The notes beneath the pieces are model-generated. The model had not been told where the DNA came from. It made no database searches and was given only the letters and a program-made list of their open reading frames with translations. A program made the position numbers and the translations under genes. Of a DNA stretch of 63,583 nt, positions 3,474-38,606 are shown piece after piece; position 1 is the stretch's first letter; each line of letters starts with the position of its first letter. Origin of the DNA: a virus (lineage: Duplodnaviria > Caudoviricetes). The DNA is taken from the IMG/VR virus record IMGVR_UViG_3300036760_000302, positions 1-63,583 of that record; one strand, written 5' to 3'.

Positions 3474-4421
3474 ATGGCAAAGAAAAAAGCAATTAAACAA
3501 ATCTGCTCCCTCTACGATTTATTAAAAAAGTTCCCTACGGAGAAGGACTGCATCGAATATTTCGAGCAGATAATCTGGTATGGGAAGCCAGTATCTCCAT
3601 TTGATGAGACCTCGAAGGTCTATAAATGCTCTGGCAACAAATATAAGTGCAAAAAGACTGGTAAATATTTCAATATAAAGAACGGTACTATTTTCGAGAA
3701 TAGTAATATCAAACTGCAAAAGTGGCTGATGGCTATTTACCTGATGACCTCCCACAAGAAAGGAATCAGTTCAATACAACTGGCAAGGGATATAGGCGTT
3801 ACTCAGAAATCCAGTTGGTTTATGCTCCATAGACTCCGCTACGCAATGGCTCACAGGGACTTTAAGAAGCCGTTGAGTAACATCGTTGAGTGCGATGAGG
3901 CATATATTGGTGGAAAGGAAAAGAATAGGCATCAGAATAAGAAAGGACGCGGACAAGGTTCATTCGGTAGAGAAGCATTGGATAAGGCAACTGTATTCGG
4001 GGCAGTGGAGCGAGGTGGAAAGGTTCTGGCAGAGAAAATAGTTAATGCTAATAAGGAAAATATCGAACCGATTATCTTCAAAAATATAAAGGAAGGCACA
4101 AAGATATTTACTGATGAATGGTATGGCTACCATGCGCTGAGTAAATCCTACGAACATAAGTCAATCAAACATAGTTTGAAGCAGTATGTAGATGGCGAAG
4201 TTCACACGAATACAATCGAAAATTTCTGGGCGTGCCTAAAGCGTGGATTGTATGGAATCTATCATAAGACCGACAAAGCACACTTGCAATGGTATCTGGA
4301 CGAGTTCGCTTTTCGATACAATACGAGGGACTTGAATGAACTGAAACGATGTGAGTTGTTTATCGGAGCGACTCAAGGGAGATTGAAGTATAGGCAGTTG
4401 ATAAAGAAAAAGTCTAATTAA
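3474..4421 (+). CDS. IS1595-family DDE transposase
   Basis: VECDEAYIGG, IFTDEW, HTNTIENFW, YLDEFAFRYN. Confidence 0.95.
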   Translation: MAKKKAIKQICSLYDLLKKFPTEKDCIEYFEQIIWYGKPVSPFDETSKVYKCSGNKYKCKKTGKYFNIKNGTIFENSNIKLQKWLMAIYLMTSHKKGISSIQLARDIGVTQKSSWFMLHRLRYAMAHRDFKKPLSNIVECDEAYIGGKEKNRHQNKKGRGQGSFGREALDKATVFGAVERGGKVLAEKIVNANKENIEPIIFKNIKEGTKIFTDEWYGYHALSKSYEHKSIKHSLKQYVDGEVHTNTIENFWACLKRGLYGIYHKTDKAHLQWYLDEFAFRYNTRDLNELKRCELFIGATQGRLKYRQLIKKKSN

Positions 4422-5169: not shown

Positions 5170-5282
5170 CCTATACACTATCCGTCTTTCAATTTTTATG
5201 TTATTTCAGCAAGTGTAAAATAGTATATAATTACCTTTTTACTGGTTGATTATCAGTGAATTATGAGCTTAGTAGAAAATAA

Positions 5283-5315
5283 TTTATAAACCAAGCAACT
5301 TTTGTTATACATTTG
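5283..5315 (+). promoter_or_regulatory. Bacteroidota sigma70-type promoter of tRNA operon 1
   Basis: TTTA-N21-TACATTTG (-33/-7 elements). Confidence 0.6.
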
Positions 5316-5383
5316 TCGTCTAAAGAGAAACAAACGCTCCGCGAGGAGTAAAACAGAAAATCAACCGAGTAATAAAACAGACA

Positions 5384-5521
5384 ATGCTTTCACTTCAAAA
5401 AAATACAACAACAATGTGGACGATAGCGGGTAAAACCTGTGTGTCAGTCATTCGCTTTAATGAAGCGGGGGACGATACAAGCGGGGCTTTCCACAAAGTT
5501 TTGTATTCTGACGAAGAATAA
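5384..5521 (+). CDS. Leader peptide of tRNA operon 1 (45 aa; alternative start 5414)
   Basis: MLSLQKNTTTMWTIAGKTCVSVIRFNEAGDDTSGAFHKVLYSDEE*; its 3' part overlaps the antiterminator strand. Confidence 0.75.
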   Translation: MLSLQKNTTTMWTIAGKTCVSVIRFNEAGDDTSGAFHKVLYSDEE

Positions 5522-5577
5522 AAATACGAAACTCAAAAGAAGCCCCGCACAAGAAATTGTTCGGGGCTTTTTGTTTT
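5481..5577 (+). terminator. Attenuator 1 (antiterminator 5481..5548; intrinsic terminator 5540..5577)
   Basis: AAGCCCCG-C-ACAA-GAAA-TTGT-T-CGGGGCTT plus U-tract; GCGGGGCTT(5481) pairs with AAGCCCCGC, and GTTTTGTATT with AATACGAAAC. Confidence 0.8.
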
Positions 5578-5579
5578 AT

Positions 5580-6533
5580 ATGGGTTTTAAATACGAGTGT
5601 GAAAAATATGGTTTAAAAATAAGATACATGAAACCGCTTTATACTAAAGAAGAATTTAAAATAGCCGAAGGGGAAGATAAATTACCATTAGAATGTTACT
5701 CCTGCGGAAATACCTTCTTAAAACTAAAGCGAGTGATTCAAAGAACCCTGCGGAATAAAAATGGATATACAGGAAAATTTTGTAGCAAAAAATGTTGTGG
5801 TGCATCAAAGAAAAGAAAATTAATATCAGCAAAGTGCGAAAACGATAAATGCAATAAAGAACACGATGGTTCTTTCGGAAGTGGTAGATTTTGCAGAAGG
5901 GCTTGCGCTAATAGCAGAGTCAAAAGCGAATCAGATAAATTAAAAATATCTGCTGGGGTCAGGAATAGCGAGGCGTTTAAGGTAAGTGTCTTAAAATTAC
6001 CCAAGAAGATTAGGAAGATGTGGCGCGATGGGAAATATAATAGCAGAAGTGAAAAATTGATAAAGGTAGTTAAGTGGAAATGCCCAGTTTGCGATTCTAT
6101 TATAATGTTAAATCCAAGCGTAGCAAGAGAAAGAAAATATTGTAGTGGAAGATGTAGAAATAAAGTGAATAATAAATTTCAGAATGGTAGTAGGTCGTAT
6201 GCCGAAAGATACTTGGAGGAAAAATTAAGCGAGTCGTTTCCGTCATTAAAAATTGAATTTAATAATAGAGAAGTATTGAGTGGAAATAAAGAGTTGGATG
6301 TGTACATACCGTCTTTGAACTTTGCGATAGAATGGAATGGAATTTATCATTACAGGGAAGTAAATAAAGAAAGTTTAGTTAAGGTAAAAAAGAGAGATTT
6401 TGATAAAAAGAAAGAGTGTAAGCGAGGCGGAATATTGCTGTATGTGATAAAAGATTTAACGAGCAGTAAGAAATTTATAAGAGAAGAAACTGATAAAATT
6501 GTTCTTGTTATACGCAGACTAATTCATGGGTGA
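5580..6533 (+). CDS. Putative homing endonuclease (Zn fingers plus PD-(D/E)XK domain)
   Basis: Repeated FCS..C modules; ELDVYIPSLNFAIEWNGIYHY; ATG 5580 preferred. Confidence 0.75.
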   Translation: MGFKYECEKYGLKIRYMKPLYTKEEFKIAEGEDKLPLECYSCGNTFLKLKRVIQRTLRNKNGYTGKFCSKKCCGASKKRKLISAKCENDKCNKEHDGSFGSGRFCRRACANSRVKSESDKLKISAGVRNSEAFKVSVLKLPKKIRKMWRDGKYNSRSEKLIKVVKWKCPVCDSIIMLNPSVARERKYCSGRCRNKVNNKFQNGSRSYAERYLEEKLSESFPSLKIEFNNREVLSGNKELDVYIPSLNFAIEWNGIYHYREVNKESLVKVKKRDFDKKKECKRGGILLYVIKDLTSSKKFIREETDKIVLVIRRLIHG

Positions 6534-6596
6534 GATGGTCGGACTCCAAATCCGATGCCCGAAAGGGATGTGCGGGTTCGACTCCTGCTCTGCGTG
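6512..6596 (+). tRNA. tRNA-Trp(CCA) with long variable arm
   Basis: ACGCAGA/TCTGCGT-G; TCGGA-CTCCAAA-TCCGA; GCGGG-TTCGACT-CCTGC. Confidence 0.8.
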
Positions 6597-6638
6597 CAAG
6601 TAGTAAAATTGTTCTTTGAAAGTAAAATATTGTTTTTT

Positions 6639-6927
6639 TTTGGCAGGACTCCAGAAGTGGGGGTCGCACAGATGAACAACCATTACAACAACGTACAGTT
6701 CCAACGGCACTGTAATGGTGCGGAACAGTTCTCTTGCCGAAGATATTTAAGATGTTTGGTCACGACAAGCAGTTTGACGAACTAACCGTTCCTTCATCGT
6801 CACTGGGGCGGGCTTGTCGTGTGCCGGACAAAAGAATCTACTAAGCAGGTTTGAGATGAAAAAAAAAACAGAGCAAAGAAAATCAGCATCTCTGTAATTT
6901 GCCGTCAACCGGAGAATGTCCTGCTTA
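6639..6927 (+). ncRNA. Three stem-closed putative ncRNAs (6639..6741, 6753..6830, 6842..6927)
   Basis: Closing stems GGCAGGA/TCTTGCC, CACGACAAGC/GCTTGTCGTG, TAAGCAGG/CCTGCTTA. Confidence 0.45.
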
Positions 6928-6935
6928 AAATATTT

Positions 6936-7008
<73 letters not shown>

Positions 7009-7096
7009 CTTCTGCTAAACCATAATGCAGATGGATGAAGATGATAAATCGTAACTGAATTGTACAATAGGTTACGGCTAAAACGGATTCGTCTCA

Positions 7097-7161
7097 GGCG
7101 ATGTTCATTAGGGGGCAAGTCGCGAACTTGTCAAGGGGTGAAAGTCCTCTCATCGCCACCA
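7097..7161 (+). ncRNA. D-armless tRNA-like RNA ending in ACCA
   Basis: GGCGATG/CATCGCC-ACCA; GCAAG-TCGCGAA-CTTGT; AGGGG-TGAAAGT-CCTCT. Confidence 0.55.
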
Positions 7162-7162
7162 T

Positions 7163-7235
7163 GCCTGTGTAGCTCAGTTGGTAGAGCTCCTGACTTGTAA
7201 TCAGGGGGTCGGGGGTTCAAGTCCCTCCGCAGGCT
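7163..7235 (+). tRNA. tRNA-Thr(TGT)
   Basis: Canonical cloverleaf; loop CTTGTAA. Confidence 0.95.
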
Positions 7236-7259
7236 CGACTGGTTCTTTAAAAGTAAGAT

Positions 7260-7332
7260 TGCGATGTAACTCAGGTGGTAGAGTACAGGATTCATAAACC
7301 TGTTGTCGCGGGTTCGAGTCCCGCCATCGCAA
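7260..7332 (+). tRNA. tRNA-Met(CAT)
   Basis: TGCGATG/CATCGCA; loop TTCATAA. Confidence 0.85.
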
Positions 7333-7348
7333 CCGGATAAAAATATAT

Positions 7349-7395
7349 TGCGGGGTGGACTGGCGTTCGGTTGCCAGCTTGGTCTCATAAACCAA
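7349..7395 (+). pseudogene. Orphan 5' half of a tRNA-Met(CAT), interrupted by an HNH cassette
   Basis: TGCGGGG, D-arm CTGGC/GCCAG, TTGGT-CTCATAA-ACCAA; no T-arm follows. Confidence 0.75.
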
Positions 7396-7435
7396 AAATT
7401 GTAAGATGAGACCATTTTTGTATCTTTGAAATAAA

Positions 7436-7834
7436 ATGCCATATAAAGACAAGGATATTCAGAGAGAAAAGAATAGGGGGTATCAAAAGAAATATTATAG
7501 TAATAATAAAAAATACTATCAAAAAAAATCAAGCGACAGAAAAAAGGTTCTCGCTGTCGAATTAGAAAAAATAAAAAAGAAATTAAAATGCGAAAAATGT
7601 GGAGAGGGTCATGTGGCGACTCTGGACTTTCATCACAAAAATGCCAGTGAAAAAGAAAAAGGGGTCGGTGCGTCAATATCTAATGGATGGTCAATTAATA
7701 GAATCAAAAAAGAAATAAAAAAATGTATAGTCTTGTGCTCTAATTGCCATAGAAAATTACACTACAAGGAAAGGAAATTGAGAAAAAAAAATATTGCGGG
7801 ACAGTTGCGATGGAGTGCAATAGGAGTCTCATAA
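7436..7834 (+). CDS. HNH endonuclease
   Basis: CEKCG..LDFHH..CIVLCSNCHRKLH; TATCTTTG promoter element at 7421..7428. Confidence 0.9.
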   Translation: MPYKDKDIQREKNRGYQKKYYSNNKKYYQKKSSDRKKVLAVELEKIKKKLKCEKCGEGHVATLDFHHKNASEKEKGVGASISNGWSINRIKKEIKKCIVLCSNCHRKLHYKERKLRKKNIAGQLRWSAIGVS

Positions 7835-7870
7835 ACTCTCTGGTCGGCAGTTCGAGTCTGCCTCCCGCTA
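7795..7870 (+). tRNA. tRNA-Met(CAT), initiator-like
   Basis: TGCGGGA/TCCCGCT with 1:72 mismatch; GGAGT-CTCATAA-ACTCT. Confidence 0.8.
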
Positions 7871-7887
7871 CGAAAGTAAAATAACAT

Positions 7888-7960
7888 TTGCGCGTAGCTC
7901 ATTCGGTAGAGCGCTACTCTGATAAAGTAGAGGTAGAAAGTTCAAATCTTTCCGTGCAAA
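7888..7960 (+). tRNA. tRNA-Ile(GAT)
   Basis: CTACT-CTGATAA-AGTAG; full cloverleaf. Confidence 0.9.
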
Positions 7961-7968
7961 CAAAATTT

Positions 7969-8046
7969 GGACAAGTAGCTCATGGTAGGTAGAGCATCGG
8001 TCTGTTAAACCGAGTGTGGCAGGTTCGACCCCTGCCTTGTCCGCCA
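7969..8046 (+). tRNA. tRNA-Asn(GTT), encoded CCA
   Basis: GGACAAG/CTTGTCC-GCCA; loop CTGTTAA. Confidence 0.92.
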
Positions 8047-8057
8047 GAATAAAACAT

Positions 8058-8131
8058 GGTGATGCAGAATAATGGCGCATTTTACCTCCCTGTCACGGAG
8101 GGGATTACGGGTTCGAGTCCCGTCATCACCG
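8058..8131 (+). tRNA. tRNA-Asp(GTC)
   Basis: GGTGATG/CATCACC-G; loop CTGTCAC. Confidence 0.9.
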
Positions 8132-8211
8132 CAAGTAAATAAAAATAAAAAAAAGTAAAATGAAAAACAAAATTACAGTATCCGAGCCAGCCGAACCTTA
8201 TGAGGAAACTT

Positions 8212-8282
8212 GTCAGGTTAGTTTAGTGGCAGAACGCTGGGCTTTCATCCCAGAGGCAGGAGTTCGATTCTCCTACTTGATA
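8212..8282 (+). tRNA. tRNA-Glu(TTC)
   Basis: CTGGG-CTTTCAT-CCCAG; T-arm AGGAG/CTCCT. Confidence 0.88.
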
Positions 8283-8296
8283 CTTAATAAATATAA

Positions 8297-8368
8297 GCGA
8301 GGTATAGCTTAATCGGCAAAGCATCAGTTTTCCAAACTGAGGATGCGGTTCAAATCCGATACTTCGCT
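8297..8368 (+). tRNA. tRNA-Gly(TCC), irregular acceptor/T junction
   Basis: TCAGT-TTTCCAA-ACTGA; GCGAGGTA/TACTTCGC. Confidence 0.8.
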
Positions 8369-8422
8369 CACATGGCGAGTTTAAAGGGAATCCACAGTCG
8401 GGAGACTGCCTCTCGCCTCCAT

Positions 8423-8495
8423 GCGGAAGTAGCTCAGGTGGTAGAGCGTATCGTTGCCAACGATAAGGTCGTGAGTTCAAATCTCATTTTCCGCT
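8423..8495 (+). tRNA. tRNA-Gly(GCC)
   Basis: Canonical cloverleaf; loop TTGCCAA. Confidence 0.93.
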
Positions 8496-8570
8496 CGAAA
8501 AAGGCTCTTTGAAGTATTTGGCTTAATTATTGCATGGTATATGTGACTCGAACCATGAAATCATTAAGGT

Positions 8571-9800
8571 ATGAAAGAAAGTATATTGAGATTACATTTT
8601 GAGGGCAAAAGCTATAATGAAATAAGGGCAATTCTTGGTTGTTCTAAAGGAACGATATCTTATCACTGCGGAGTAGAGCAGAAAGATAAAAGCAGAAAAA
8701 GAAAAAGAAAAAACAGGAAGGCGCGTAGAGGAATTAATAACAGAAGAAAGAAGATTGAGGTAAAAGAGGAGATATTAATATTACGCTCAGAAGGGAAAAC
8801 ATATCCTGAAATTGAAAAAATATTAAAATGCTCTCAAGGAAGAATAGGGTATTGGATTAAAAAAGAGAAGGGAATAACCCCATCTGATATATGCGAAAAC
8901 TGCAACAGAAAACATGATGGAAATTATGGCTCTGGTAGATTTTGTTCTCATAAATGCGCTCATGTAAGAAAAGGAGGTGGAAACGGGAATGCCATTAAAT
9001 GCAGAAAAAATAAAATAGAAAAAGAATTAACGAGACTAAATACAATTCATATATGTGAAAATTGTAACAATCAACATAGCGGAAATTACGGCAGTGGAAG
9101 ATTTTGCTCTTCTAAATGTGCAAGAGGATTTTCTACAAAAGAAAACAGAAAAAATATTAATGATGCCGTATCCGAAGCAATGACTGGTAGAAAGCATTCA
9201 GAAGAAAGAAAATTAAAAATATCTCCATTATTTGTATATTATTGGAAAGGTAAAAAGAAAAATGACGAAAACAGGAAAACTAAAATAAAACGCGGGAGGG
9301 GATATAAAAGGAAATTAAATCCAAAATCTTCAAAGGATTTAGCCGGATTAATAAAATTAGATAAAAAGTGCAGATATTGTAATGAAGCGGGGAGTGTTCT
9401 TTATCATGGTAGTGTATGTAAAAAATGCAAAAGTGAATTTTATATATTATATAGAGAAGCGTGTCGTTTTAAGTTCAATGTTTATCACTATCCAGAATAC
9501 TTTGATTTATCTTTAATAGAAAAACATAAATGGTATAAAGCAAAAAATAGGGGAGATAATTTAGGGGGAGTTAGCCGAGACCACCTATATTCTGTAAGTG
9601 ACGGATTTAAAAACAAGATTAATCCTGAAATCATTAGTCATCCGGCAAACTGCGAACTATTAATACATACAGACAATCAAAAGAAGCATAGCAAGAGCAA
9701 AATAACATTAGGTGAATTGATGAAGAGGATGAAAATATGGTCGGATAGCCAAACGGTTAGGCGCACCTCTGCAAAAGGTGATAAATCAGTTCAACTCTGA
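8571..9800 (+). CDS. Putative homing endonuclease (HTH repeats, Zn fingers, NUMOD3-like, HNH-like C-terminus)
   Basis: GKSYNEI..CSKGTISYH; CENCN..GSGRFCS twice; SRDHLYS..HPANCEL..N..K. Confidence 0.75.
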   Translation: MKESILRLHFEGKSYNEIRAILGCSKGTISYHCGVEQKDKSRKRKRKNRKARRGINNRRKKIEVKEEILILRSEGKTYPEIEKILKCSQGRIGYWIKKEKGITPSDICENCNRKHDGNYGSGRFCSHKCAHVRKGGGNGNAIKCRKNKIEKELTRLNTIHICENCNNQHSGNYGSGRFCSSKCARGFSTKENRKNINDAVSEAMTGRKHSEERKLKISPLFVYYWKGKKKNDENRKTKIKRGRGYKRKLNPKSSKDLAGLIKLDKKCRYCNEAGSVLYHGSVCKKCKSEFYILYREACRFKFNVYHYPEYFDLSLIEKHKWYKAKNRGDNLGGVSRDHLYSVSDGFKNKINPEIISHPANCELLIHTDNQKKHSKSKITLGELMKRMKIWSDSQTVRRTSAKGDKSVQL

Positions 9801-9809
9801 TTCCGACCT
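9739..9809 (+). tRNA. tRNA-Cys(GCA)
   Basis: GGTCGGA/TCCGACC-T; CACCT-CTGCAAA-AGGTG. Confidence 0.92.
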
Positions 9810-9884
9810 CTGAATGAAAAAGCGCACGACAGCCAGTAATGGTATGTTCAAAGTTGCAAATAAGAACGTGGAGAAATCCGGTCG

Positions 9885-9954
9885 CGGTAGTTGGTGTAGT
9901 GGCGCACGCTGAGATGATGTCTCAGAGGAATGGGTTCGACCCCCTAACTATCAA
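9885..9954 (+). tRNA. Atypical tRNA, anticodon GAT (Ile-like)
   Basis: CTGAG-ATGATGT-CTCAG; T-stem imperfect. Confidence 0.6.
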
Positions 9955-9956
9955 TC

Positions 9957-10030
9957 GGGTCTTTAGCTCAGTTGGTTAGAGCATCGGTCTCATAAACCGC
10001 AGGTCACAGGTTCGAGCCCTGTAAGACCCA
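9957..10030 (+). tRNA. tRNA(CAT), probably Ile2 (lysidine type)
   Basis: GGGTCTT/AAGACCC-A and Ile-type D-arm; loop CTCATAA. Confidence 0.8.
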
Positions 10031-10032
10031 CG

Positions 10033-10833
10033 ATGGCAAATAAAGAAAATGAAATGGATGAGAATAAACATATATGTAATCTGACTTGGTGCGAACAGCA
10101 CAGAGAATGTTTTTATAGAAATAAAAATCAATCTGCTGTTTCATATACCGGAGAAATATTTTGTTACCATAAAAATTGGACGGAATCATTACATAAAGAG
10201 CAAGAAATAAAAACCCCAGTGATAAAGCGAGTGGAGGATAGTGATGATAGCTGGAATTTCGGACAAGCAGTTCGGGCTAAGGTGAGTCAGCCTCACTGCG
10301 AAAATCCGAGTTGTAATTCGATTGCAGATTTGAAATATAATGATAAAGTAAATCTATGCTACAAATGCTTGGATTCGCTCCGGTCGCATCGGTCGAATTA
10401 TGAACTGGCGATATATTTTGGAAGTAAAATAAAAGTGCTAAAACTGTTAAAAGTAATTCAGGAGCTTGAAGCTCCGGTTAAAGAAAAGAAAACTATCGTG
10501 GTAAGATGCTCAAACATATACTGCTGTTCGACTGAGCAAGTCACTCAGCACCATCTGATTCCTAATCCGTACAGGAAAGGAGTTATCGGTGGTGGTAAGA
10601 AGATTCCTTTGTGCTGGGGTTGCCACGTTCGGGTTCATGGTCTTAGGTTTAATCATGAGCTTGCGTTCAATTATAATACGAAGTCAGCCGTGATTAAACT
10701 TTTGGAAGAAGATACGCTGTTCAGGCTTTACAAGATGAAGGTAATTACAAATCCGCCAGCTCTTCCAAAGCGCAAGATGACGGTAGTGGCACTAAATTCA
10801 GTGCCGAGTAGAATGATAGCAGTTGCCGGATAA
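10033..10833 (+). CDS. HNH-like Zn-binding protein
   Basis: QHHLIP..IPLCWGCHVRVH. Confidence 0.6.
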   Translation: MANKENEMDENKHICNLTWCEQHRECFYRNKNQSAVSYTGEIFCYHKNWTESLHKEQEIKTPVIKRVEDSDDSWNFGQAVRAKVSQPHCENPSCNSIADLKYNDKVNLCYKCLDSLRSHRSNYELAIYFGSKIKVLKLLKVIQELEAPVKEKKTIVVRCSNIYCCSTEQVTQHHLIPNPYRKGVIGGGKKIPLCWGCHVRVHGLRFNHELAFNYNTKSAVIKLLEEDTLFRLYKMKVITNPPALPKRKMTVVALNSVPSRMIAVAG

Positions 10834-10853
10834 AATCGTCCGGCAACTATAAT

Positions 10854-10927
10854 GGGGAATTAGCTCAGTTGCTTAGAGCGCCCGCCTTGCAAGCGGGAGG
10901 TCATCGGTTGAAGTCCGATATTCTCCA
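10854..10927 (+). tRNA. tRNA-Ala(TGC)
   Basis: GGGGAAT/ATTCTCC-A with G3:U70; loop CTTGCAA. Confidence 0.93.
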
Positions 10928-10994
10928 CAATAAAAAAAACGAACCAACGCTTTGTGGTTTAGTGAAAGTTCGTATATTTGTATAAAAAAAAGCC

Positions 10995-11546
10995 ATGAAG
11001 AGTAAAAGGATATTTAAAAACGGATACTATGTTGTACATAAGCCAGAGCATCCGAGAGCGTTTAACTCGAAAGGTAATAATTTGAGAGGGTATGTGTACG
11101 AGCACATAGTAGTTATGGAGGAAGATTTGGGGAGAATGATAAGGGATGATGAAGAAGTCCATCATCTTGATTTCAATAAGAGAAATAATTCTCCAGAAAA
11201 TTTAATAGTGTTGCCGAGTCCTCATCATAAGAGATTGCATCATTGGTTAATTGCTAATAAAATAAAGCCGATTCAGAAAGAGGTGTTAAGGTGTGAGGTT
11301 TGTGGCAAGCCATTGAGGTTGACTATGCAGAGTAAATATTGTAGCGAGATTTGTCGCAGGGAAGGTAAGAAGTCGAGAATAGATGAGGTGGGAATTGAGC
11401 AGATAAAAAAAGATTTGGTTGAGCTAAGGAGTCTCGTTAAGGTCGGAGCTAAATACGGATTGTCTGATAATGCTATAAAAAAATGGATGAAATTAAGATT
11501 TGGATACACGAATAAAGAAATTAGGAAAATGAAAAAGGGGGCATAA
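10995..11546 (+). CDS. HNH endonuclease
   Basis: YVYEHIVVME..VHHLDFNKRNNSPENL; TATATTTG promoter element at 10973..10980. Confidence 0.9.
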   Translation: MKSKRIFKNGYYVVHKPEHPRAFNSKGNNLRGYVYEHIVVMEEDLGRMIRDDEEVHHLDFNKRNNSPENLIVLPSPHHKRLHHWLIANKIKPIQKEVLRCEVCGKPLRLTMQSKYCSEICRREGKKSRIDEVGIEQIKKDLVELRSLVKVGAKYGLSDNAIKKWMKLRFGYTNKEIRKMKKGA

Positions 11547-11611
11547 CTCAGTTGGTTCAGAGTGCAATCCTTACAAGATTGAAGTCACAGGTTCGACCCC
11601 TGTTGCCCCCA
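11537..11611 (+). tRNA. tRNA-Val(TAC)
   Basis: GGGGGCA/TGCCCCC-A; loop CTTACAA. Confidence 0.93.
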
Positions 11612-11767
11612 CGATATGTAAAGAAAAGTGGAATTTTCTTTACATGAAAAACGGATATGTGAAGTTTCTTTACATGACAATCGGTAATATATTGCTGATT
11701 TGGATAAAAACGGAATAATCTTGTAGTAAAAAATACTAAATCGGCAATATATTACTGATTCTGGAAA

Positions 11768-11989
11768 ATGGAACTAAAATTGAAAACGGACATAGGGGAG
11801 CTCACGGCAGTATTACTGAGCGACACCATTGACGGTGGCAGTAAAACGGTCTGGACAGCTTGGATAAAGGAATATGCCGGAGCGGTAACTCAAGCTGACA
11901 GCATACAAGGGGCAATGGATAAGTTGCCGGAGATTTTGGACTTACTATTGAAAGTAGAAGCAGAACACTTAATAAACGGTAAAGATTAA
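11768..11989 (+). CDS. HicB-like antitoxin domain protein (orphan)
   Basis: WTAWIKEYAGAVTQADSIQGAMDKLPEIL resembles the HicB N-terminal fold. Confidence 0.6.
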   Translation: MELKLKTDIGELTAVLLSDTIDGGSKTVWTAWIKEYAGAVTQADSIQGAMDKLPEILDLLLKVEAEHLINGKD

Positions 11990-12052
11990 AAAAAACGACA
12001 ATGGAAATCATCGAAGTAGATATTGAAGGTAAGAAACGGGGCGATAAAATTC

Positions 12053-12125
12053 GACCTCGTAACTCAACTGGTAGAGTACCGCTCTTTTAAAGCGGGAGTT
12101 GTGCGTTCAAATCGCATCGGGGTCA
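12053..12125 (+). tRNA. tRNA-Lys(TTT)
   Basis: CCGCT-CTTTTAA-AGCGG. Confidence 0.92.
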
Positions 12126-12135
12126 CAAACTATTA

Positions 12136-12209
12136 GGGTTTGTAGCTCAACTGCTTAGAGCATCGCACTCTTAATGCGAGGGTTGTGGGTTGGAATCCCA
12201 CCAGACCCA
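12136..12209 (+). tRNA. tRNA-Lys(CTT)
   Basis: TCGCA-CTCTTAA-TGCGA. Confidence 0.92.
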
Positions 12210-12282
12210 CTAATAAATAAAATCAATAATTGAGTTGAACCTATGCTTATTAAAATTAGTATATTTACTTAAAATATACTAA

Positions 12283-12942
12283 ATGGGAAAGCCAAGAAAT
12301 ATTAAAGATGAAATAATAAGACTGTATTCGTCTGGAAAATTTTATAATGAAATAGCGAAAGAACTAAAGTGCTCTAAGGGTACGGTTAGTTATCACTGTG
12401 CTGAAATAAGAATAGAAAAGGGGCTCGATAAGAACGGGCAATGGAATAATGCTGACCCTGAAAAATACATAAAGGCGTGGCAGTTATGTAGGCAAAAGAT
12501 TGTAAATCATTATGTGAAAAAATTACTATCAGAGCCATATAAAAATTTAAGTTTTGAAAGGCTTAGGAAGAGAGTGATTTATGAGCAGAAGGAAAAGTGT
12601 AATCGCTGTAAGTTGTCGGAATGGCTCGGCATGAAGATAATGCTTGAATTAGAGCATAAAGACGGAGATAGGCATAATAATAAACGAAAAAATGTGGAAG
12701 GATTATGTCCAAATTGTCATAGTCAAACAAGTACATGGAGAGGGAAGAATAAGAGGAATAAAAGAGATTTAGTATCTGACGAGAAATTGATAATTTCATT
12801 AGTTAAGCATGGTTTTAATTTTAGAAGAGCTCTAATCGAAGTAGGTCTTGCTCCTAAAGGTGGTAACTATAAGAGATGCCATAAAATAAGTAGAGCACTA
12901 AGGGGTGGTCAGAATAAATCATCGAGCACTAAAAGTTTTTAA
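12283..12942 (+). CDS. HNH endonuclease with N-terminal HTH
   Basis: LELEHKDGDRHNNKRKNVEGLCPNCHSQT. Confidence 0.9.
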   Translation: MGKPRNIKDEIIRLYSSGKFYNEIAKELKCSKGTVSYHCAEIRIEKGLDKNGQWNNADPEKYIKAWQLCRQKIVNHYVKKLLSEPYKNLSFERLRKRVIYEQKEKCNRCKLSEWLGMKIMLELEHKDGDRHNNKRKNVEGLCPNCHSQTSTWRGKNKRNKRDLVSDEKLIISLVKHGFNFRRALIEVGLAPKGGNYKRCHKISRALRGGQNKSSSTKSF

Positions 12943-12983
12943 CAATCACTGAACGTAAAATAATTTGAAATAGATTTGCAGAA

Positions 12984-13190
12984 ATGTTTGAACTCATGCG
13001 CCATATCAGCTTACCTTTCAATAGGGACAGGAAAATCATTAGTTGTCAATACTGTGGCGGGATGGTTTCTTTCAGGGATAGCCATGCTAACCACGTTCTG
13101 TTCGCCTGCGACAAATGCAAGTCGCCAAAAGAAAAAAATGTAGAACCTAAAAAAGTTTATAACTTTGCCGATAATGATTTCGTATTCTAA
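12984..13190 (+). CDS. Small Zn-ribbon protein
   Basis: CQYC..CDKC. Confidence 0.45.
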   Translation: MFELMRHISLPFNRDRKIISCQYCGGMVSFRDSHANHVLFACDKCKSPKEKNVEPKKVYNFADNDFVF

Positions 13191-13308
13191 CCATATCATC
13201 AGCCTCAACGCTTCCTCTTTCCGTGCCCGCATCAGGCGCAGACGGTAATTCCGTCACATATTCCCTTTTGCCTTTCAACTCTTATTTATTTACAGCCTTT
13301 TTAAATCT

Positions 13309-13384
13309 GGGCTTGTAGTTCAACGGATAGAATAGAAGATTTCTAACCTTCTGATGGCGAGTTCGATTCTCCCCAAGCCTACCA
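13309..13384 (+). tRNA. tRNA-Arg(TCT), encoded CCA
   Basis: Loop TTTCTAA; cloverleaf. Confidence 0.9.
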
Positions 13385-13392
13385 GTGTATTT

Positions 13393-13465
13393 GCCCGCAT
13401 AGTTTAATAGGACAGAACCTCTCATTCCTAACGAGAAAATCTCAGTTCGATTCTGGGTGTGGGTG
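13393..13465 (+). tRNA. tRNA-Arg(CCT)
   Basis: Loop TTCCTAA; cloverleaf. Confidence 0.88.
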
Positions 13466-13470
13466 CAAAT

Positions 13471-13543
13471 GGGTTCGTAGTTTAACAGGATAGAATATAT
13501 CACTACGGATGATATGATGGGGATTCGACTTCCCCCGAACCCA
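13471..13543 (+). tRNA. tRNA-Arg(ACG)
   Basis: TATCA-CTACGGA-TGATA. Confidence 0.9.
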
Positions 13544-13547
13544 CAAC

Positions 13548-13620
13548 GCCTTTGTAGTTTAATTGGATAGAATATCAGATTTCGGCTCTGATGGTGGAGA
13601 TTCGAGTTCTCCCGAAGGCA
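13548..13620 (+). tRNA. tRNA-Arg(TCG)
   Basis: TCAGA-TTTCGGC-TCTGA. Confidence 0.9.
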
Positions 13621-13621
13621 C

Positions 13622-16278: not shown

Positions 16279-17103
16279 ATGAAAAAATATTTCATAGTAA
16301 CGATATTGCTAATTCTGATTATAGTTTCATGCGGACTGTTCAGGAGTAAGTCATCCCATTACGGAGAAGGCTCTGGATACGGCTCTGGCGGAAATTCGCA
16401 TACGGATTCTACTACCGTTAACTTTGATTCTTTATTAGGCAATGATGATATTTTCGAGAGCTTAGAGCCAGAACCTCATAAAGTAGTAATAACCTCTGGC
16501 GAGGGTTGGTATCCAAAACCTCCGAATCCTAATTTGAAAATAGTTAAGATTGAAAATACGCGGGTCATAAATAAATCCGTTGATATGTCCGATGGAAGGG
16601 TCGTGTATAAAATTCCTGAGCGAATGAAGATTCGCGAGACCAGCAAAGTCCTGCTTAGAATCTCCAAGTCTAAAGCAACGGTGAGCGTGTATGATAATCT
16701 GGACGGCACAGTTCGGACATCAGAAATTCCGGTGACGCAGACGATGGAAGTAAATCTTATTGACCCATCCCCAGCCGACAATAAATCATTTGAGATAGTG
16801 CCGGACAATAACGCGGTGCAGATAGTTGATGACGGGGAGACCTACACTGAATGGTCATGGAATGTCACTCCGGTTCGGGCTGGGAGCTCCAGCTTGAAGA
16901 TTGTAGTATCGGTAATCCGCGATGGGAATAAAAAAGACGTAGTGTATGAGGACTCGGTAGTGATTGAAAGAGACCTCCAGAATCAAATATCCTTCTTCTG
17001 GGGCAAATACTGGCAGTGGCTCATAGGAACATTCCTCCTGCCGTTTTTCTTGTGGCTGTATAAGCGAAAAAAGGATAAAAAAGAAGAAGAGAGAAATAAT
17101 TGA
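16279..17103 (+). CDS. Lipoprotein with C-terminal TM helix
   Basis: IVSC lipobox; WQWLIGTFLLPFFLWLY. Confidence 0.7.
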   Translation: MKKYFIVTILLILIIVSCGLFRSKSSHYGEGSGYGSGGNSHTDSTTVNFDSLLGNDDIFESLEPEPHKVVITSGEGWYPKPPNPNLKIVKIENTRVINKSVDMSDGRVVYKIPERMKIRETSKVLLRISKSKATVSVYDNLDGTVRTSEIPVTQTMEVNLIDPSPADNKSFEIVPDNNAVQIVDDGETYTEWSWNVTPVRAGSSSLKIVVSVIRDGNKKDVVYEDSVVIERDLQNQISFFWGKYWQWLIGTFLLPFFLWLYKRKKDKKEEERNN

Positions 17104-17109
17104 AAATAA

Positions 17110-17142
17110 TTTGCTCGCGTATTAAATTAATTCCTATATTTG
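17110..17142 (+). promoter_or_regulatory. Bacteroidota sigma70-type promoter of tRNA operon 2
   Basis: TTTG-N21-TATATTTG, consensus match. Confidence 0.8.
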
Positions 17143-17179
17143 CCTCGTGAGGCGCAAATCTCACTATGAAAAACAGAAA

Positions 17180-17272
17180 ATGAAAAATTTATCACTATAT
17201 AGTCTATCGTTGCTCCAACAGCATCCGCAGGGATACTCAGGGCTTCATTGCTATATGGTGATTGAAAAATAA
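17180..17272 (+). CDS. Leader peptide of tRNA operon 2 (30 aa)
   Basis: MKNLSLYSLSLLQQHPQGYSGLHCYMVIEK*. Confidence 0.78.
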   Translation: MKNLSLYSLSLLQQHPQGYSGLHCYMVIEK

Positions 17273-17331
17273 AACTTCCAACACCAAGCAGAGAACCCTG
17301 AGCAAGAAATTGTTTGGGGTTTTTTGTTTTT
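17236..17331 (+). terminator. Attenuator 2 (antiterminator 17236..17302; terminator 17294..17331)
   Basis: AACCCTGAGCAA-GAAA-TTGTTTGGGGTT plus U-tract; CTCAGGG/CCCTGAG, TGCT/AGCA, TGGTG/CACCA. Confidence 0.8.
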
Positions 17332-17349
17332 ATGTGGTCGGTTGTAATT

Positions 17350-17423
17350 CGGGGTGTAGCGCAGTCCGGTAGCGCATCTGTTTTGGGAACAGAGGGTCGT
17401 AGGTTCAAATCCTGCCACTCCGA
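17350..17423 (+). tRNA. tRNA-Pro(TGG)
   Basis: CGGGGTG/CACTCCG-A; loop TTTGGGA. Confidence 0.95.
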
Positions 17424-17430
17424 CAAATAT

Positions 17431-17505
17431 GGTGTTGTTAGTTCAGTCGGTTAGAACGCTTGATTGTGGTTCAAGAGGTCGCCAGTTCAAATCTGGTACA
17501 ACACC
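17431..17505 (+). tRNA. tRNA-His(GTG)
   Basis: G-1:C73; loop TTGTGGT. Confidence 0.93.
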
Positions 17506-17525
17506 CAGCTAAAATAAATGACAAA

Positions 17526-17723
17526 ATGAAAATAGATATAAGTTATATCAGCACTAAGTATTACGACAGGACAAACATTGTTCAATGGATGTTCATGTTT
17601 AAAAGATACACGGCTGTAAGGGGATTTATCATGAGGGTATTTGGAATTTATTTTAATGTGAGAGAAAATAATGCGACAGAAAAATTGATAAAATTATTTA
17701 TAGAATCACGGAAGTGTGGGTGA
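17526..17723 (+). CDS. Small hypothetical protein
   Basis: ATG at 17526; stop lies inside tRNA-Ser. Confidence 0.5.
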   Translation: MKIDISYISTKYYDRTNIVQWMFMFKRYTAVRGFIMRVFGIYFNVRENNATEKLIKLFIESRKCG

Positions 17724-17800
17724 GTGGCTGAAACCACTCGTTTGCTAAACGAGCAATCGGCTGAATAGTCGGTTCGAGAGTTCAAATCTCTCCGCTTCCG
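17710..17800 (+). tRNA. tRNA-Ser(GCT)
   Basis: Loop TTGCTAA; long variable arm. Confidence 0.93.
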
Positions 17801-17814
17801 CAAATAAAAAAAAG

Positions 17815-18045
17815 ATGAACATAGTTCTTAAAATAAAAGTAGAAGGTTACACCGCTATAATGGTGGAGGATAAAGAGGAAGGTTTGTTTACGATGTCCTG
17901 CTTGGAAAAAGGTGGAGCAATCATAACCGGAAATACGAAGGAGGAATGTCTGGAGAAATTCAAGAAGGCGATGGGGCTGGCGGTCGCGGTAGCAAAGCTG
18001 GCTGAGTTTGGAAGAAGTAGAACATTTAACTACAAAAGAAAATGA
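17815..18045 (+). CDS. HicB-like domain protein
   Basis: EDKEEGLFTMSCLEKGGAIITGNTKEECLEKF. Confidence 0.5.
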   Translation: MNIVLKIKVEGYTAIMVEDKEEGLFTMSCLEKGGAIITGNTKEECLEKFKKAMGLAVAVAKLAEFGRSRTFNYKRK

Positions 18046-18245
18046 ACACGGAAATTGAGGACATGATAATTGATAAATGGGCTGAGGATGTAATCAGCTC
18101 GGACTCGGAGCGAGTTATTGAATACAAGAATGGTAATGAAGGATTACTCGGATACTTTGTCGGAATGACGATGAAAAAATCGAGAGGTCAGTTGGATGTG
18201 AGTAAATTAAATAAGGCGATAAAAGAAAAACTCAATAAAATATAA
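18042..18245 (+). CDS. Stand-alone GatB/YqeY C-terminal domain protein
   Basis: EYKNGNEGLLGYFVGMTMKKSRGQLD. Confidence 0.75.
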   Translation: MNTEIEDMIIDKWAEDVISSDSERVIEYKNGNEGLLGYFVGMTMKKSRGQLDVSKLNKAIKEKLNKI

Positions 18246-18307
18246 AAACTGAAAATGGAAGCACCAGAAAAAATAGACGAGGACTCGTTCTCCGGAATAA
18301 CACATAC

Positions 18308-18402
18308 GGAGGCGTGGCAGAGTCAGCTTTATCGCACCAGTCTTGAAAACTGGCAATCACTTTAAGCTAAGTGGTTCGGGGGTTGAAATCCCTCCGCCTC
18401 CG
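18308..18402 (+). tRNA. tRNA-Ser(TGA)
   Basis: CCAGT-CTTGAAA-ACTGG; long variable arm. Confidence 0.92.
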
Positions 18403-18504
18403 CAAATAAATAAAAACAGGAAGTAAATAAATAAAACAAAATGAAAGACTATTATTATACATAGCGGGGATTGATTGGCAAGTCCACCTTCTCCGCAACG
18501 CAAT

Positions 18505-18588
18505 GGGAATGCGCCAGAGTTGGAGAGCTGGGTTTGTCTGTAAAACAAATGGCTTCGGTCTAAGTGAGTTCGATTCTCACAATTCCCA
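18505..18588 (+). tRNA. tRNA-Tyr(GTA)
   Basis: TTTGT-CTGTAAA-ACAAA. Confidence 0.88.
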
Positions 18589-18606
18589 CAGATGAAAATA
18601 AAATAT

Positions 18607-18690
18607 GCGAGCGTGGCGGAATCGGCATACGCACTGGTCTAAGAAGCCAGCGTCCGGAAGGAATTAAGAGTTCAACTCTCTTCGCTCGCA
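18607..18690 (+). tRNA. tRNA-Leu(AAG)
   Basis: CTGGT-CTAAGAA-GCCAG. Confidence 0.9.
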
Positions 18691-18694
18691 CAAA

Positions 18695-18778
18695 CCGCAA
18701 GTGGTGGAATCGGCAGACACATACGCCTCAGAAGCGTATGCTCGGAAGGGCGTAAGAGTTCAAGTCTCTTCTTGCGGA
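18695..18778 (+). tRNA. tRNA-Leu(CAG)
   Basis: TACGC-CTCAGAA-GCGTA. Confidence 0.9.
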
Positions 18779-18792
18779 CGAAAAATATAAAT

Positions 18793-18876
18793 GCGAGTAT
18801 GGCGGAACTGGCAGACGCGATGGACTCAAAACCCATTGGAGTGAAATCCGTAAGAGTTCGATTCTCTTTATTCGCA
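18793..18876 (+). tRNA. tRNA-Leu(CAA)
   Basis: Loop CTCAAAA. Confidence 0.9.
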
Positions 18877-18929
18877 CGATAAAAAAACTAAAATGAAAAC
18901 AACTGAACGATTATGTGCGAGGGAAATAT

Positions 18930-19015
18930 CCTCGCATGGCGAAATTGGTAAACGCGCTATCCTTAAAAGGTAGTGGGCAGTAATGCCCGTGTCGGTTCGA
19001 CTCCGATTGCGAGGA
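18930..19015 (+). tRNA. tRNA-Leu(TAA)
   Basis: CTATC-CTTAAAA-GGTAG. Confidence 0.9.
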
Positions 19016-19143
19016 CAGTACAAAGTAATACGATGTAATACAAAATAATACAATGAACAATTTAAACCAGCAACAGCAAGAATAAACAACGAAGGGGAGA
19101 ACCATCGTAAGGAGGGGTCTTGCCCTTCCGGTGATGAATATAT

Positions 19144-19214
19144 TCTCCTCTCGTCTAACGGTAGGACATCTGATTTTGGCTCAGAGAATTGCAGTTCAAA
19201 TCTGTGGGGGAGAA
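19144..19214 (+). tRNA. tRNA-Gln(TTG)
   Basis: TCTGA-TTTTGGC-TCAGA. Confidence 0.88.
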
Positions 19215-19251
19215 CAATAGAAAAATAATTATCTTTGCGGATATTTCTTAT

Positions 19252-19324
19252 TGACCTATGGTGTAATTGGCAACACGACTGATTTTGGTTCAGTAGAGTC
19301 TAAGTTCGAGCCTTAGTGGGTCAA
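19252..19324 (+). tRNA. tRNA-Gln(TTG)
   Basis: ACTGA-TTTTGGT-TCAGT. Confidence 0.9.
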
Positions 19325-19400
19325 CAAGCTGGATGCTGTTAATAAGTTTTGTAAGATTGTACTTGACAGATGTAATTACATTATTATCTTTGTGTCATAT

Positions 19401-35872: not shown

Positions 35873-36064
35873 TAATATTATTTGCATCAAGTATCTCCAG
35901 ACGATAAAGACAATAATCCAAAGGACTACGTTGATTATCACGAACTGAGCAAATACCGTTTCACTTTCTTTTTTAAAATATTTATTTGATGCCATTTTTA
36001 ATACGACCCATAGTACGCTGGTAATCAAGGCTACGCTTATTATGAAGGATATAAAATAGTTCAT
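35852..36064 (-). CDS. Small membrane protein, 3' end altered by the MITE
   Basis: Two TM segments; last codons lie in the TIR. Confidence 0.6.
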   Translation of the reverse strand: MNYFISFIISVALITSVLWVVLKMASNKYFKKESETVFAQFVIINVVLWIIVFIVWRYLMQIILGNYILI

Positions 36065-37167
36065 CAGTCAATTTTTGGATTATTGAAAAATTCCATCATT
36101 CCACCTCTTTTTTTGCCCGCACCGAATTTACTGCTACTCATCATGATGCTTGAATTTTCATCATCAATCATAATTGCTCGTTGGATGTATTCCGGTAGCG
36201 TAGTTCCTTTTGGCAGGAATTTATAATGACTTCTGATTGCACACTTCTTGTACATATCTGTTTTCCATTCGGTATAGAAATAGTCGCTCTCGCCTCCGGT
36301 ACTCATTTGTTCTATTTTCGCGAGCTTCCATATCTCCATGAAGTGATAATGCTTTGTTCCGTCATTCAGTATGGCGACAGAATAAGCTCCGGCAATTTGG
36401 CGTGCATTATTTTCAGCTTCGGTCTTAGCAACTTTTGGCTTATGGGTAATTTTATTCTCGGCTGGAAGATACTCGAACTCATAGTCATCTTCATAAACTA
36501 TATGAGCGTCCATAACTTTTATACTACCGCTATCTGTCAAGGACTTGATTAATCCGCGATAGGTGAGCTCGAATACGCATTTGCCGTCTTTGGCTTTAAG
36601 GTATGCAAGTTTTAAAGCTGGATTAATTGTGCTCTTGGTTCTGCCTATGTCAATGATTGCGGAAACTATCGAGTCTTGATGACAATTTTTGAGAGTTGGA
36701 TTTTCGTGGAAGATGGAATAAACGTATGACATCTCGGTGTCAGCTTGACTCTCAGCCATTCCTTCGACTACCAGTATTTGCCTTGCCTTCTCTACTTGGT
36801 TCTGCCAGTGAGGTGTAGAGCCGGAAATGGTAGTGGATTCGTTAGGCTCTAATACAATAGGTGATGATGAGATTATTTTAATGGGCTTGTCGCTATTATT
36901 TTTTATGTCGAATCGTTGTCCTGCTGATGATGCGTGAGGTAATGCAACCGTAGTCTGAGTCTCGGATTCCTTTTTTAATTTCCAAATCATTGTGTTGATA
37001 GAACCCTCAGACCTATTAAGCTGGGACGATAGCCAATCTACTGGCTTATTTATATTGTGCTGGATGAAATCAATCTCATCCTGCTTCCACCGCTTGTTGT
37101 GAGATTTTCCTGTAAAACCTGTTAGATTTAGTTGAGAGGTATAAGGCATTATTTTTTTCTGTTTCAT
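36064..37167 (-). CDS. recT: RecT-family single-strand annealing protein
   Basis: SIVSAI..INPALKLAYL..LTYRGLI..IVYEDD..MYKKCAIR..KFLP. Confidence 0.8.
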   Translation of the reverse strand: MKQKKIMPYTSQLNLTGFTGKSHNKRWKQDEIDFIQHNINKPVDWLSSQLNRSEGSINTMIWKLKKESETQTTVALPHASSAGQRFDIKNNSDKPIKIISSSPIVLEPNESTTISGSTPHWQNQVEKARQILVVEGMAESQADTEMSYVYSIFHENPTLKNCHQDSIVSAIIDIGRTKSTINPALKLAYLKAKDGKCVFELTYRGLIKSLTDSGSIKVMDAHIVYEDDYEFEYLPAENKITHKPKVAKTEAENNARQIAGAYSVAILNDGTKHYHFMEIWKLAKIEQMSTGGESDYFYTEWKTDMYKKCAIRSHYKFLPKGTTLPEYIQRAIMIDDENSSIMMSSSKFGAGKKRGGMMEFFNNPKID

Positions 37168-37172
37168 TTTTT

Positions 37173-38343: not shown

Positions 38344-38606
38344 AATGGCTTTAAGCCTCTCTGTATGTTGAGATAAATCCACTTCGGGATTGTTAAAACA
38401 GGTTTTTGAGCCTGACACACTAAGAGTTTCCTCTTTGTTTAATGACAGACCACAGTTGCTACGGACTTGTGGAGCATCCGTAGGTGTGTTCTTTTTAGTT
38501 CTCTGTTTTAACTTCTGCTTCATTGTTTCCAATTTACGCTCCCTAATCAACCTGTTACCCTTAAACCTCACGGCTCAAGCCCTTTCTTTTGGATTGGGTG
38601 ATTGAC
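37176..38606 (-). mobile_element. IscB (OMEGA) IS200/IS605 element
   Basis: Begins GTCAATCACCC, then omegaRNA, then iscB; ends near TACAAC. Confidence 0.8.
38350..38606 (-). ncRNA. omegaRNA (HEARO-like) scaffold
   Basis: About 260 nt structured region 5' of iscB; TCAATCACCC..GGTTGATT first stem. Confidence 0.7.

Follow-up and report, generated by a model that had tools for sequence, protein, structure and literature searches.

The locus examined here raises the question of how a phage with a large set of tRNA genes of its own might decide when to transcribe them. It lies at positions 17,110–17,331 of the IMG/VR virus record IMGVR_UViG_3300036760_000302 (Duplodnaviria; Caudoviricetes), which was analysed over its whole length of 63,583 bases, hereafter called the window, and which has an estimated completeness of about 35%. 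The window carries 33 tRNA genes, all on the plus strand. Operon 1 (6512..13621, +), interrupted by open reading frames (ORFs) of the HNH/HTH type, holds 22 of them, for Trp, Phe, Thr, Met, Ile, Asn, Asp, Glu, Gly, Cys, Ala, Val, Lys, and Arg; operon 2 (17350..19325, +) holds 11 together with two small ORFs, one of which encodes a GatB_Yqey domain. The 20 amino acids are divided 14/6 between the two operons with no overlap. A short ORF, a candidate leader peptide, precedes each operon, and the one ahead of operon 2 (leader 2) is the main subject. Judged from the letters and from modelled folds, the unit that contains it would be a ribosome-mediated attenuator reading the supply of the same tRNAs that it controls, a reading to which we assign a probability of roughly 0.78; the phage probably produces tRNAs of its own only when supply falls short.

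Candidate leader peptides written largely in the amino acids of the tRNAs behind them

Leader ORF 2 (17180..17272, +) comprises 30 codons and a stop, its start being set by homology with five relatives. Codons 4–17 (17189..17230, +) read TTA TCA CTA TAT AGT CTA TCG TTG CTC CAA CAG CAT CCG CAG, exactly as listed in an earlier note made from the sequence, and form a sensor block of 5 Leu, 3 Ser, 1 Tyr, 3 Gln, 1 His, and 1 Pro. These are exactly the six amino acids carried by the tRNAs of operon 2 (Pro, His, Ser(GCT), Ser(TGA), Tyr, Leu(AAG, CAG, CAA, TAA), and two Gln). Among the 120,458 codon positions in the six frames of the window, the next longest run of these amino acids has 11 residues as against 14 here, and 13 in a row have p = 6.6e-8 per position under the phage's own amino-acid frequencies, in which the six together account for 28%. 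Since no frame of the window holds a longer run, the block is not a chance feature.

A paralogous unit is found at 5278–5579, ahead of the 22-tRNA operon 1. Its promoter (5278..5315, +) is paralogous to that of leader 2, and leader ORF 1 (5384..5521, +; 45 codons) draws 23 of the 24 residues of its codons 6–29 from the 14 amino acids of operon 1, each of which is present somewhere in the ORF. The leader 1 terminator (5542..5579, +), composed of a stem (5542–5567) with a GAAA loop and a subsequent U tract (5568–5579), is 91% identical to its leader 2 counterpart, and the ORF ends align as well; as in leader 2, the terminator 5′ arm has an alternative partner upstream (5481–5490), forming an antiterminator. 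The division of amino acids between the leaders mirrors that between the operons: 23 of leader 1 codons 2–29 fall in the operon 1 set and 5 outside, compared with 2 and 13 (the latter in the operon 2 set) for leader 2 codons 2–16 (Fisher p = 1.7e-5). A 12-nt motif, previously noticed as common to both leaders, occurs exactly at 5350 and 17170, and in both a copy abuts the start codon (5374–5385, with one mismatch, and 17170–17181). The accompanying claim that both leaders carry a 5′ GNRA hairpin was borne out for leader 1 (5337–5348) and not for leader 2, where the GTGA would be closed by two pairs only and the predicted 5′ hairpin (17147–17165) has a 6-nt loop.

The leader 2 promoter (17105..17142, +) is made up of an A/T-rich element, a −33 TTTG (17110–17113), a 21-nt spacer, and a −7 element (17135–17142). 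Transcription would start near 17147, because the promoter fits the Bacteroidetes consensus TTTG/TANNTTTG with a G at −5, as given in the portion of PMC6847099 drawn on here. The extended motif (8 nt, N20–22, −7 element) occurs in the window only at 5278 and 17105, with 0.02 occurrences expected. For the plain TTTG-N19-21-TANNTTTG pattern there is no enrichment (2 occurrences in the window, 1.63 expected), nor did a sigma-70 promoter scan of the window show any. A 5-codon upstream ORF (17166..17183, +) overlaps the leader 2 start codon with its stop, as had been described; it has no counterpart in the five homologous leader 2 sequences, whose 5′ untranslated regions are very short. The U tract is separated from the first tRNA gene (Pro, 17350) by 18 nt in the window; in the related locus L090 the gap is about 5 nt. 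With tRNA-Pro beginning so soon after the leader 2 terminator, there is no space for a second promoter.

A predicted RNA switch

The earlier note had proposed a leader-peptide attenuator sampling the tRNAs of its own operon, and every sequence-level feature of such a device is present. Region 1 is the sensor block itself, which also constitutes the 5′ arm of a predicted leader hairpin. Region 2 (17236..17262, +) supplies the 3′ arm of this hairpin and, alternatively, the 5′ strand of an antiterminator (helices 17236–17242, 17249–17252, and 17256–17260), and region 3 (17282..17305, +) supplies both the 3′ strand of the antiterminator (17282–17286, 17287–17290, and 17296–17302) and the 5′ arm of the terminator. 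The intrinsic terminator (17296..17331, +) has a 10-bp stem (17296–17305/17310–17319), a GAAA loop (17306–17309), and a U tract (17320–17331). A simple consensus terminator scan listed neither leader terminator, both being called from folding. An antiterminator of three helices starting 5 nt past the block had likewise been anticipated: constrained folds and duplex prediction give the pairs 17236–17242/17296–17302, 17249–17252/17287–17290, and 17256–17260/17282–17286, the first of which begins 5 nt after codon 17. The leader RNA as a whole (17143–17345) is strongly structured (z = −4.29).

These parts suggest the following course of events. Transcription would start from the Bacteroidota-type promoter, and the short leader ORF would be translated at once. 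If all codons of the block were decoded fast, the ribosome would enter region 2, the terminator hairpin would form, and the polymerase would stop before the tRNA genes. If any tRNA required by the block were scarce or uncharged, the ribosome would stall on region 1, leaving region 2 free to pair with the terminator 5′ arm, and the polymerase would continue into the tRNA genes. With a block spelled in the amino acids of the downstream tRNAs, the circuit would amount to negative feedback on decoding capacity, the tRNA set being made when any of its members limits decoding. Translation of the ORF, control of read-through by stalling, and the nature of the physiological trigger are inferred.

Nine leaders from six phage records, introduced in the next section, were folded to evaluate this scheme. 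Each of the nine ORFs is predicted to form a hairpin whose 5′ arm contains the sensor codons (z from −1.9 to −5.2), and in each the 3′ part of the ORF pairs with the terminator 5′ arm at −11.7 to −21.0 kcal/mol (mononucleotide-shuffle p 0.000–0.095). A consensus fold of the six leader 2 sequences by RNAalifold again shows the hairpin and the terminator; in 8 of its 35 pairs both partners differ. Since a MAFFT alignment of the leaders is out of register in the terminator arm, the antiterminator was judged by per-sequence duplexes. The terminators differ in sequence among the leaders and the complementary partner differs to match; for example, a U-A pair of the antiterminator core in the relative G001 corresponds to C-G in the window and in L094.

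The effect of a ribosome was modelled by a mask (footprint A site −15 to +12) moved codon by codon. In all nine leaders the terminator 5′ arm is predicted to be paired upstream (0.6–0.9) for stalls up to the end of the block and to be left mostly free by stalls just past it (0.0–0.6, depending on the leader), with the sharpest release in L091 and in the third leader of G056. The boundary of the responsive zone falls within about two codons of the block end in nine of nine leaders. For the two window leaders, the modelled equilibrium probability of the terminator climbs from about 0.1 to 0.98, in leader 2 at codon 16/17 and in leader 1 at codon 30. The distance from the stop codon to the terminator arm is 20–34 nt in eight leaders and 44 nt in the third type.

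Leader composition among relatives and competing explanations

The nine leaders comprise six of the leader 2 type (window, G001, L090, L091, L094, and G056), two of the leader 1 type (window and G056), and a single third type (G056); in all of them the frame is open, a U tract follows the terminator stem, and the promoter has an element of the −7 type. Relatives were reached in part through a 412-aa marker protein of the window (55302–56540, −), whose homologues include proteins with identities of 90, 83, 74, 70, and 62%; a further, large group lies near 50%. G001 (97,455 bases; marker 50% identical) is the only one of the 5 closest marker-bearing IMG/VR records with tRNAs. G056, a 375-kb contig binned with a Bacteroidota metagenome-assembled genome, encodes the marker at 46% identity and is its sole close match in the species genomes. 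Four of the nine leaders (L090, L091, L094, and leader 2 of G056) were found by a leader-derived pattern. Homologous operons lacking the leader had been named as the outcome that would speak against attenuation; the three arrays reached without leader bait (G001, operon 1 of G056, and the Pro/Phe array of G056) all have a leader and a terminator.

The array of G001 (His, Ser(GCT), Ser(TGA), a sub-threshold tRNA-like hit, Leu(TAA), and Leu(TAG)) is the core of window operon 2 in the same order, with a promoter, a 23-codon ORF, and a terminator ahead of it. In L090 and L091 the upstream tRNAs follow the window order (Glu, Gly, Cys, Met, Ala, Val, Lys, Arg, Arg), and the leader is positioned between the Arg and the His tRNAs. 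In G056, a leader 1 homologue stands ahead of a Thr…Arg array, and the third leader precedes Pro, Pro, a GatB_Yqey-like ORF, and Phe.

As the homologue comparison suggested by the earlier note revealed, leader composition changes with tRNA content across these relatives. The leader 2 blocks of the five relatives (10–13 codons) consist of Leu, Ser, His, and Tyr only, and their operon 2-type arrays, where seen, carry His, Ser, Tyr, and Leu only; window operon 2 adds Pro and two Gln tRNAs, and the window block adds Gln, Gln, His, Pro, and Gln codons. Codons 8–16 of the third leader in G056 (nine codons) specify Phe, Gln, and Pro only, with Pro, Pro, and Phe tRNAs behind. Leader 1 of the window has Phe codons and a Phe tRNA in its operon, and leader 1 of G056 has neither. 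On the sequence evidence, leader content follows tRNA content. Eight codons vary within codons 1–12 of the leader 2 family: 5 change synonymously only, two swap residues within the set (Tyr/His and Leu/Tyr), and one exchanges Lys and Arg. A strain variant represented by three contigs of sequencing run X2 carries His15Tyr, a synonymous change at Gln17, Tyr19His, and Met26Val.

Three leader-derived patterns gave nothing new in IMG/VR, DNA searches with window-only motifs gave no match, and pattern scans of the species genomes returned G056 plus one chance match only. Two of the six metagenome pattern hits, L092 and L095, were rejected as leaders, being chance matches. Neither the neighbouring 274-aa protein nor the marker, used as a single query, yielded relatives in IMG/VR. 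Among GenBank phages, blastn with 17000–19400 yielded only single-tRNA matches with a coverage of at most 6%, and tblastn with DnaB and the marker revealed no close cultured relative. Of 50 more distant IMG/VR records with marker homologues, 7 carry one to four tRNAs; this tRNA survey covered all but 19 of the 74 marker-homologue loci.

Each leader type opens with amino acids of other operons: Leu, Ser, Leu, and Gln in leader 1 (5387–5398), Lys and Asn in leader 2 (17183–17188), and Lys, Asn, Lys, Val, Asn, and Thr in the third type (L100 1607–1625, −). Stalls at these opening codons are also predicted by the fold model to antiterminate. The codons could provide cross-induction between operons, or they could be meaningless.

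A number of observations weigh against attenuation by the leader peptides. Some concern composition. For leader 1 alone, covering 13 of the 14 amino acids is only modestly unlikely (p about 0.01–0.02). Out-of-set residues number five in each leader 1, those of the window being Leu, Ser, Leu, Gln, and Ser, and codons 2–3 of the leader 2 family, Lys/Arg and Asn, are likewise out of set. The earlier proposal that the block samples the isoacceptors of its operon is solid at the amino-acid level and only partly borne out for the isoacceptors: the block has no CTG, as stated there, and Leu(CAG) goes unsampled, and CTA, used twice, has no exact anticodon in the window. Reading of CTC and CTA through Leu(AAG) rests on an assumed inosine-type wobble. 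Among the relatives, a Pro codon at position 14 in G001, L091, and L094 is not matched by a Pro tRNA in the array; leaders 1 and 3 of G056 have Gln codons with no Gln tRNA on the contig, which ends 211 nt past Phe; leader 1 of G056 has no Arg codon despite four Arg tRNAs; and the roughly 270 nt past the terminator of L091 contain no tRNA called by ARAGORN or Rfam. The four pattern-found leader 2 homologues are ascertained, their bait having been derived from leaders, and the nine leaders are not independent because all are related. No RNA run is listed as containing the stretch. The remaining points concern the fold. With no ribosome, both window leaders reach an equilibrium terminator probability of only about 0.15, and the terminator arm is predicted to be paired at 0.67–0.88 in six of nine leaders. 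For G001, the modelled equilibrium favours the terminator wherever the ribosome is placed (above 0.9). A ribosome at the stop codon would cover region 2 only partly, so that part of it stays free. There being no clean default-off state at equilibrium, termination without a stall would have to rest on a leader hairpin formed during transcription.

Could the same anatomy serve a different purpose? It would equally support a translation-coupled attenuator or insulator that senses translation in general (ribosome supply, coupling, or slowdown), with a codon make-up that is incidental or inherited. Stalls at the out-of-set codons 2–3 are predicted to antiterminate just as well, and in L090 the unit directly follows the last tRNA of the upstream array and could gate two array halves. 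Such a sensor is nevertheless unlikely, for the block of each of the three leader types uses amino acids of the array behind it, the blocks vary between phages as the arrays vary, and the end of the block coincides with the end of the predicted responsive zone in nine of nine leaders. Alternatively, the locus might encode a small functional peptide or a small RNA, the terminator being an ordinary leaky one and the tRNAs being made by constitutive read-through. This would account for the conservation, at the protein level, of the N-terminal 12 residues of the leader 2 family, for the predicted formation of the G001 terminator at every ribosome position, and for a terminator module shared with loci where it follows the GOLLD RNA gene (see below). 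It fits poorly with C-terminal halves and lengths (22–30 codons) that vary within the leader 2 family, with alternative pairings kept by changed sequences, with three paralogous leader types of common architecture and different peptide, with a composition that tracks tRNA content, and with a segment complementary to the terminator arm in all nine leaders, and we regard it as rather improbable.

The strong structure of the leader RNA might also point to a riboregulator acting through RNA only, in which a tRNA (as in T-boxes), a protein, or a small molecule selects between terminator and antiterminator and the ORF is a by-product; direct sensing of tRNA would be sensible for tRNA genes, too. In the window, however, only tRNA and HEARO reach the Rfam gathering score, the best E-value in 17050–17360 being 2.6, and there is no T-box match. 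Moreover, the frame is open in nine of nine leaders, substitutions are mainly synonymous or within the set, and the block is defined by amino-acid identity across differing codons, all of which makes a purely RNA-based switch very improbable. Ribosome-mediated attenuation by the leader peptides is therefore preferred, with one amendment. As equilibrium folding favours the antiterminator in most leaders even when no ribosome is present, and always the terminator in G001, the switch would have to be kinetic, like that of the E. coli trp leader; in G001, antitermination could be kinetic only. The parts of the unit, their conservation, the alternative pairings, and the match between leaders and tRNAs can, for their part, be read from the sequence itself.

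Taken together, the leaders permit a broader and more tentative proposal, to which we give slightly less than even odds: phage tRNA arrays would be run by ‘barcode’ leaders that spell the downstream amino acids and act both as a homeostat of tRNA supply and as a sensor of tRNA-targeting defence. Loss of one tRNA, be it through a host anticodon nuclease, host shut-off, or a phage codon use that does not match the host pool, would switch on the whole replacement set, which would go off again once supply is restored, and the leader would be rewritten whenever tRNA genes shift between operons. If the attenuation reading is true, leader-peptide attenuation has been applied to tRNA genes themselves, with the sensed quantity being the product; this would explain large phage tRNA arrays expressed only on need, and would give phages a natural sensor of decoding capacity that takes 4 to 14 inputs. 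The match of leader composition with the tRNA set is a sequence signature that can be searched for in other phages, and the role of phage tRNAs, codon supply versus evasion of defence, becomes directly testable with reporters.

Genomic setting and relation to known attenuators

The stretch is contained in sequencing runs of which the best DNA ones are labelled sediment metagenomes. Several neighbouring features deserve mention. Past the leader 1 terminator, an ORF of 317 aa (5580–6533, within a region at 5580–6597) overlaps an unusual tRNA-Trp of 86 nt (31 bits). In contigs of runs X2 and X6, position 5572 is joined directly to 6715, and relatives lacking the stretch with this ORF are therefore present; the ORF looks like an insertion between the terminator and the tRNAs. 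Just upstream of the leader 1 region lies an IS1595-family transposase (3474–4421). In G056, ARAGORN calls a tmRNA-like gene (L098 898–1192) 2.5 kb upstream of leader 1, and about 390 nt of unexplained sequence (L098 3900–4288) separate the leader 1 terminator from the first tRNA. The small protein with a GatB_Yqey domain is encoded inside the tRNA operon, between two Ser tRNAs in the window (18042–18245) and between the Pro and Phe tRNAs in G056 (L100 about 660–840, −). Farther away, a HEARO RNA (109 bits; 38373–38606, in a region at 36064–38606, −) is found beside an ORF of 834 aa that combines RRXRR, HNH, and RecT domains; this looks like an IscB-like nuclease element fused to, or inserted ahead of, the phage recT. 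The DnaB helicase gene (31323–33260, −) is split by a Hint/homing-endonuclease (intein) domain.

A 27-nt terminator motif of both leaders (5542–5579 and 17296–17331) recurs in 11 other IMG/VR contigs (L003–L013), directly 3′ of one conserved RNA, identified by Rfam as GOLLD in L004. The similarity reaches a few bases upstream of the stem. Because the compared parts of these contigs have no proteins in common with the window and tRNA-Met is the only tRNA nearby, the GOLLD loci are not relatives of the leader unit. GOLLD RNA itself (RF02032) matches L004 at 324 bits and nothing in the window, and was rejected as a component of the unit, the terminator module alone being common.

Classical leader-peptide attenuators (trpL, hisL, leuL, thrL, ilvL, and pheL) control operons of amino-acid biosynthesis by means of a leader ORF with regulatory codons, an RNA of four regions that pair alternatively (1:2, 2:3, and 3:4), and an intrinsic terminator before the first gene. 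Leaders for several amino acids exist among them (thr and ilv). The phage units resemble them in the short ORF, located between the promoter and the first gene, in regulatory codons that match the function of the genes behind, in the terminator upstream of those genes, and in the proposed stall on region 1 that would free region 2; a mutually exclusive antiterminator, sequestered by the region of the sensor codons, is predicted computationally. Biosynthetic and synthetase genes are the targets known for leader-peptide attenuation. Here, the genes controlled would be tRNA genes, for which reason the units are filed as a variant that works like the attenuator family rather than as a member of a described leader family.

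Attenuation by a leader peptide has been extended to aminoacyl-tRNA synthetase genes in the case of the pheST leader. Like the phage units, attenuators of this kind act on the translation apparatus rather than on biosynthesis; they concern one synthetase and one amino acid, whereas the phage units concern whole tRNA sets. T-box riboswitches, which control synthetase, transport, and biosynthesis genes, bind uncharged tRNA directly and need no translation; like the proposed phage switch, they sense the status of tRNA and choose between a terminator and an antiterminator. Another example of a leader acting on synthetase genes is a His-codon leader upstream of hisS paralogues in bacilli, described in the portion of PMC2965389 drawn on here; the same portion of that survey of premature terminators never uses the terms ‘tRNA gene’, ‘tRNA operon’, or ‘upstream of tRNA’. 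No description of leader peptides or attenuators acting on tRNA genes or phage tRNA arrays was found in the full-text literature searched, a scope outside which most subscription journals fall. Phage tRNAs counter host defences that cleave tRNA, according to the part of PMC11555353 considered, which supplies a reason for the on-demand replacement of particular tRNAs by a phage; that part concerns the function of phage tRNAs and not control of their transcription by a leader peptide.

Despite their resemblance to the classical attenuators, the phage units differ from them in several respects. Classical attenuators control enzymes, whereas the phage units would control tRNA genes. Classical leaders contain a run of one to three amino acids; those of the phages draw on 4 to 14, mirroring the tRNA set. 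In the phage units the product, tRNA, would itself be the sensed component, and the units are phage-encoded with a Bacteroidota-type promoter, neither of which holds for the classical systems. The architecture matches classical leader-peptide attenuation, and the proposed target, tRNA genes, departs from it.
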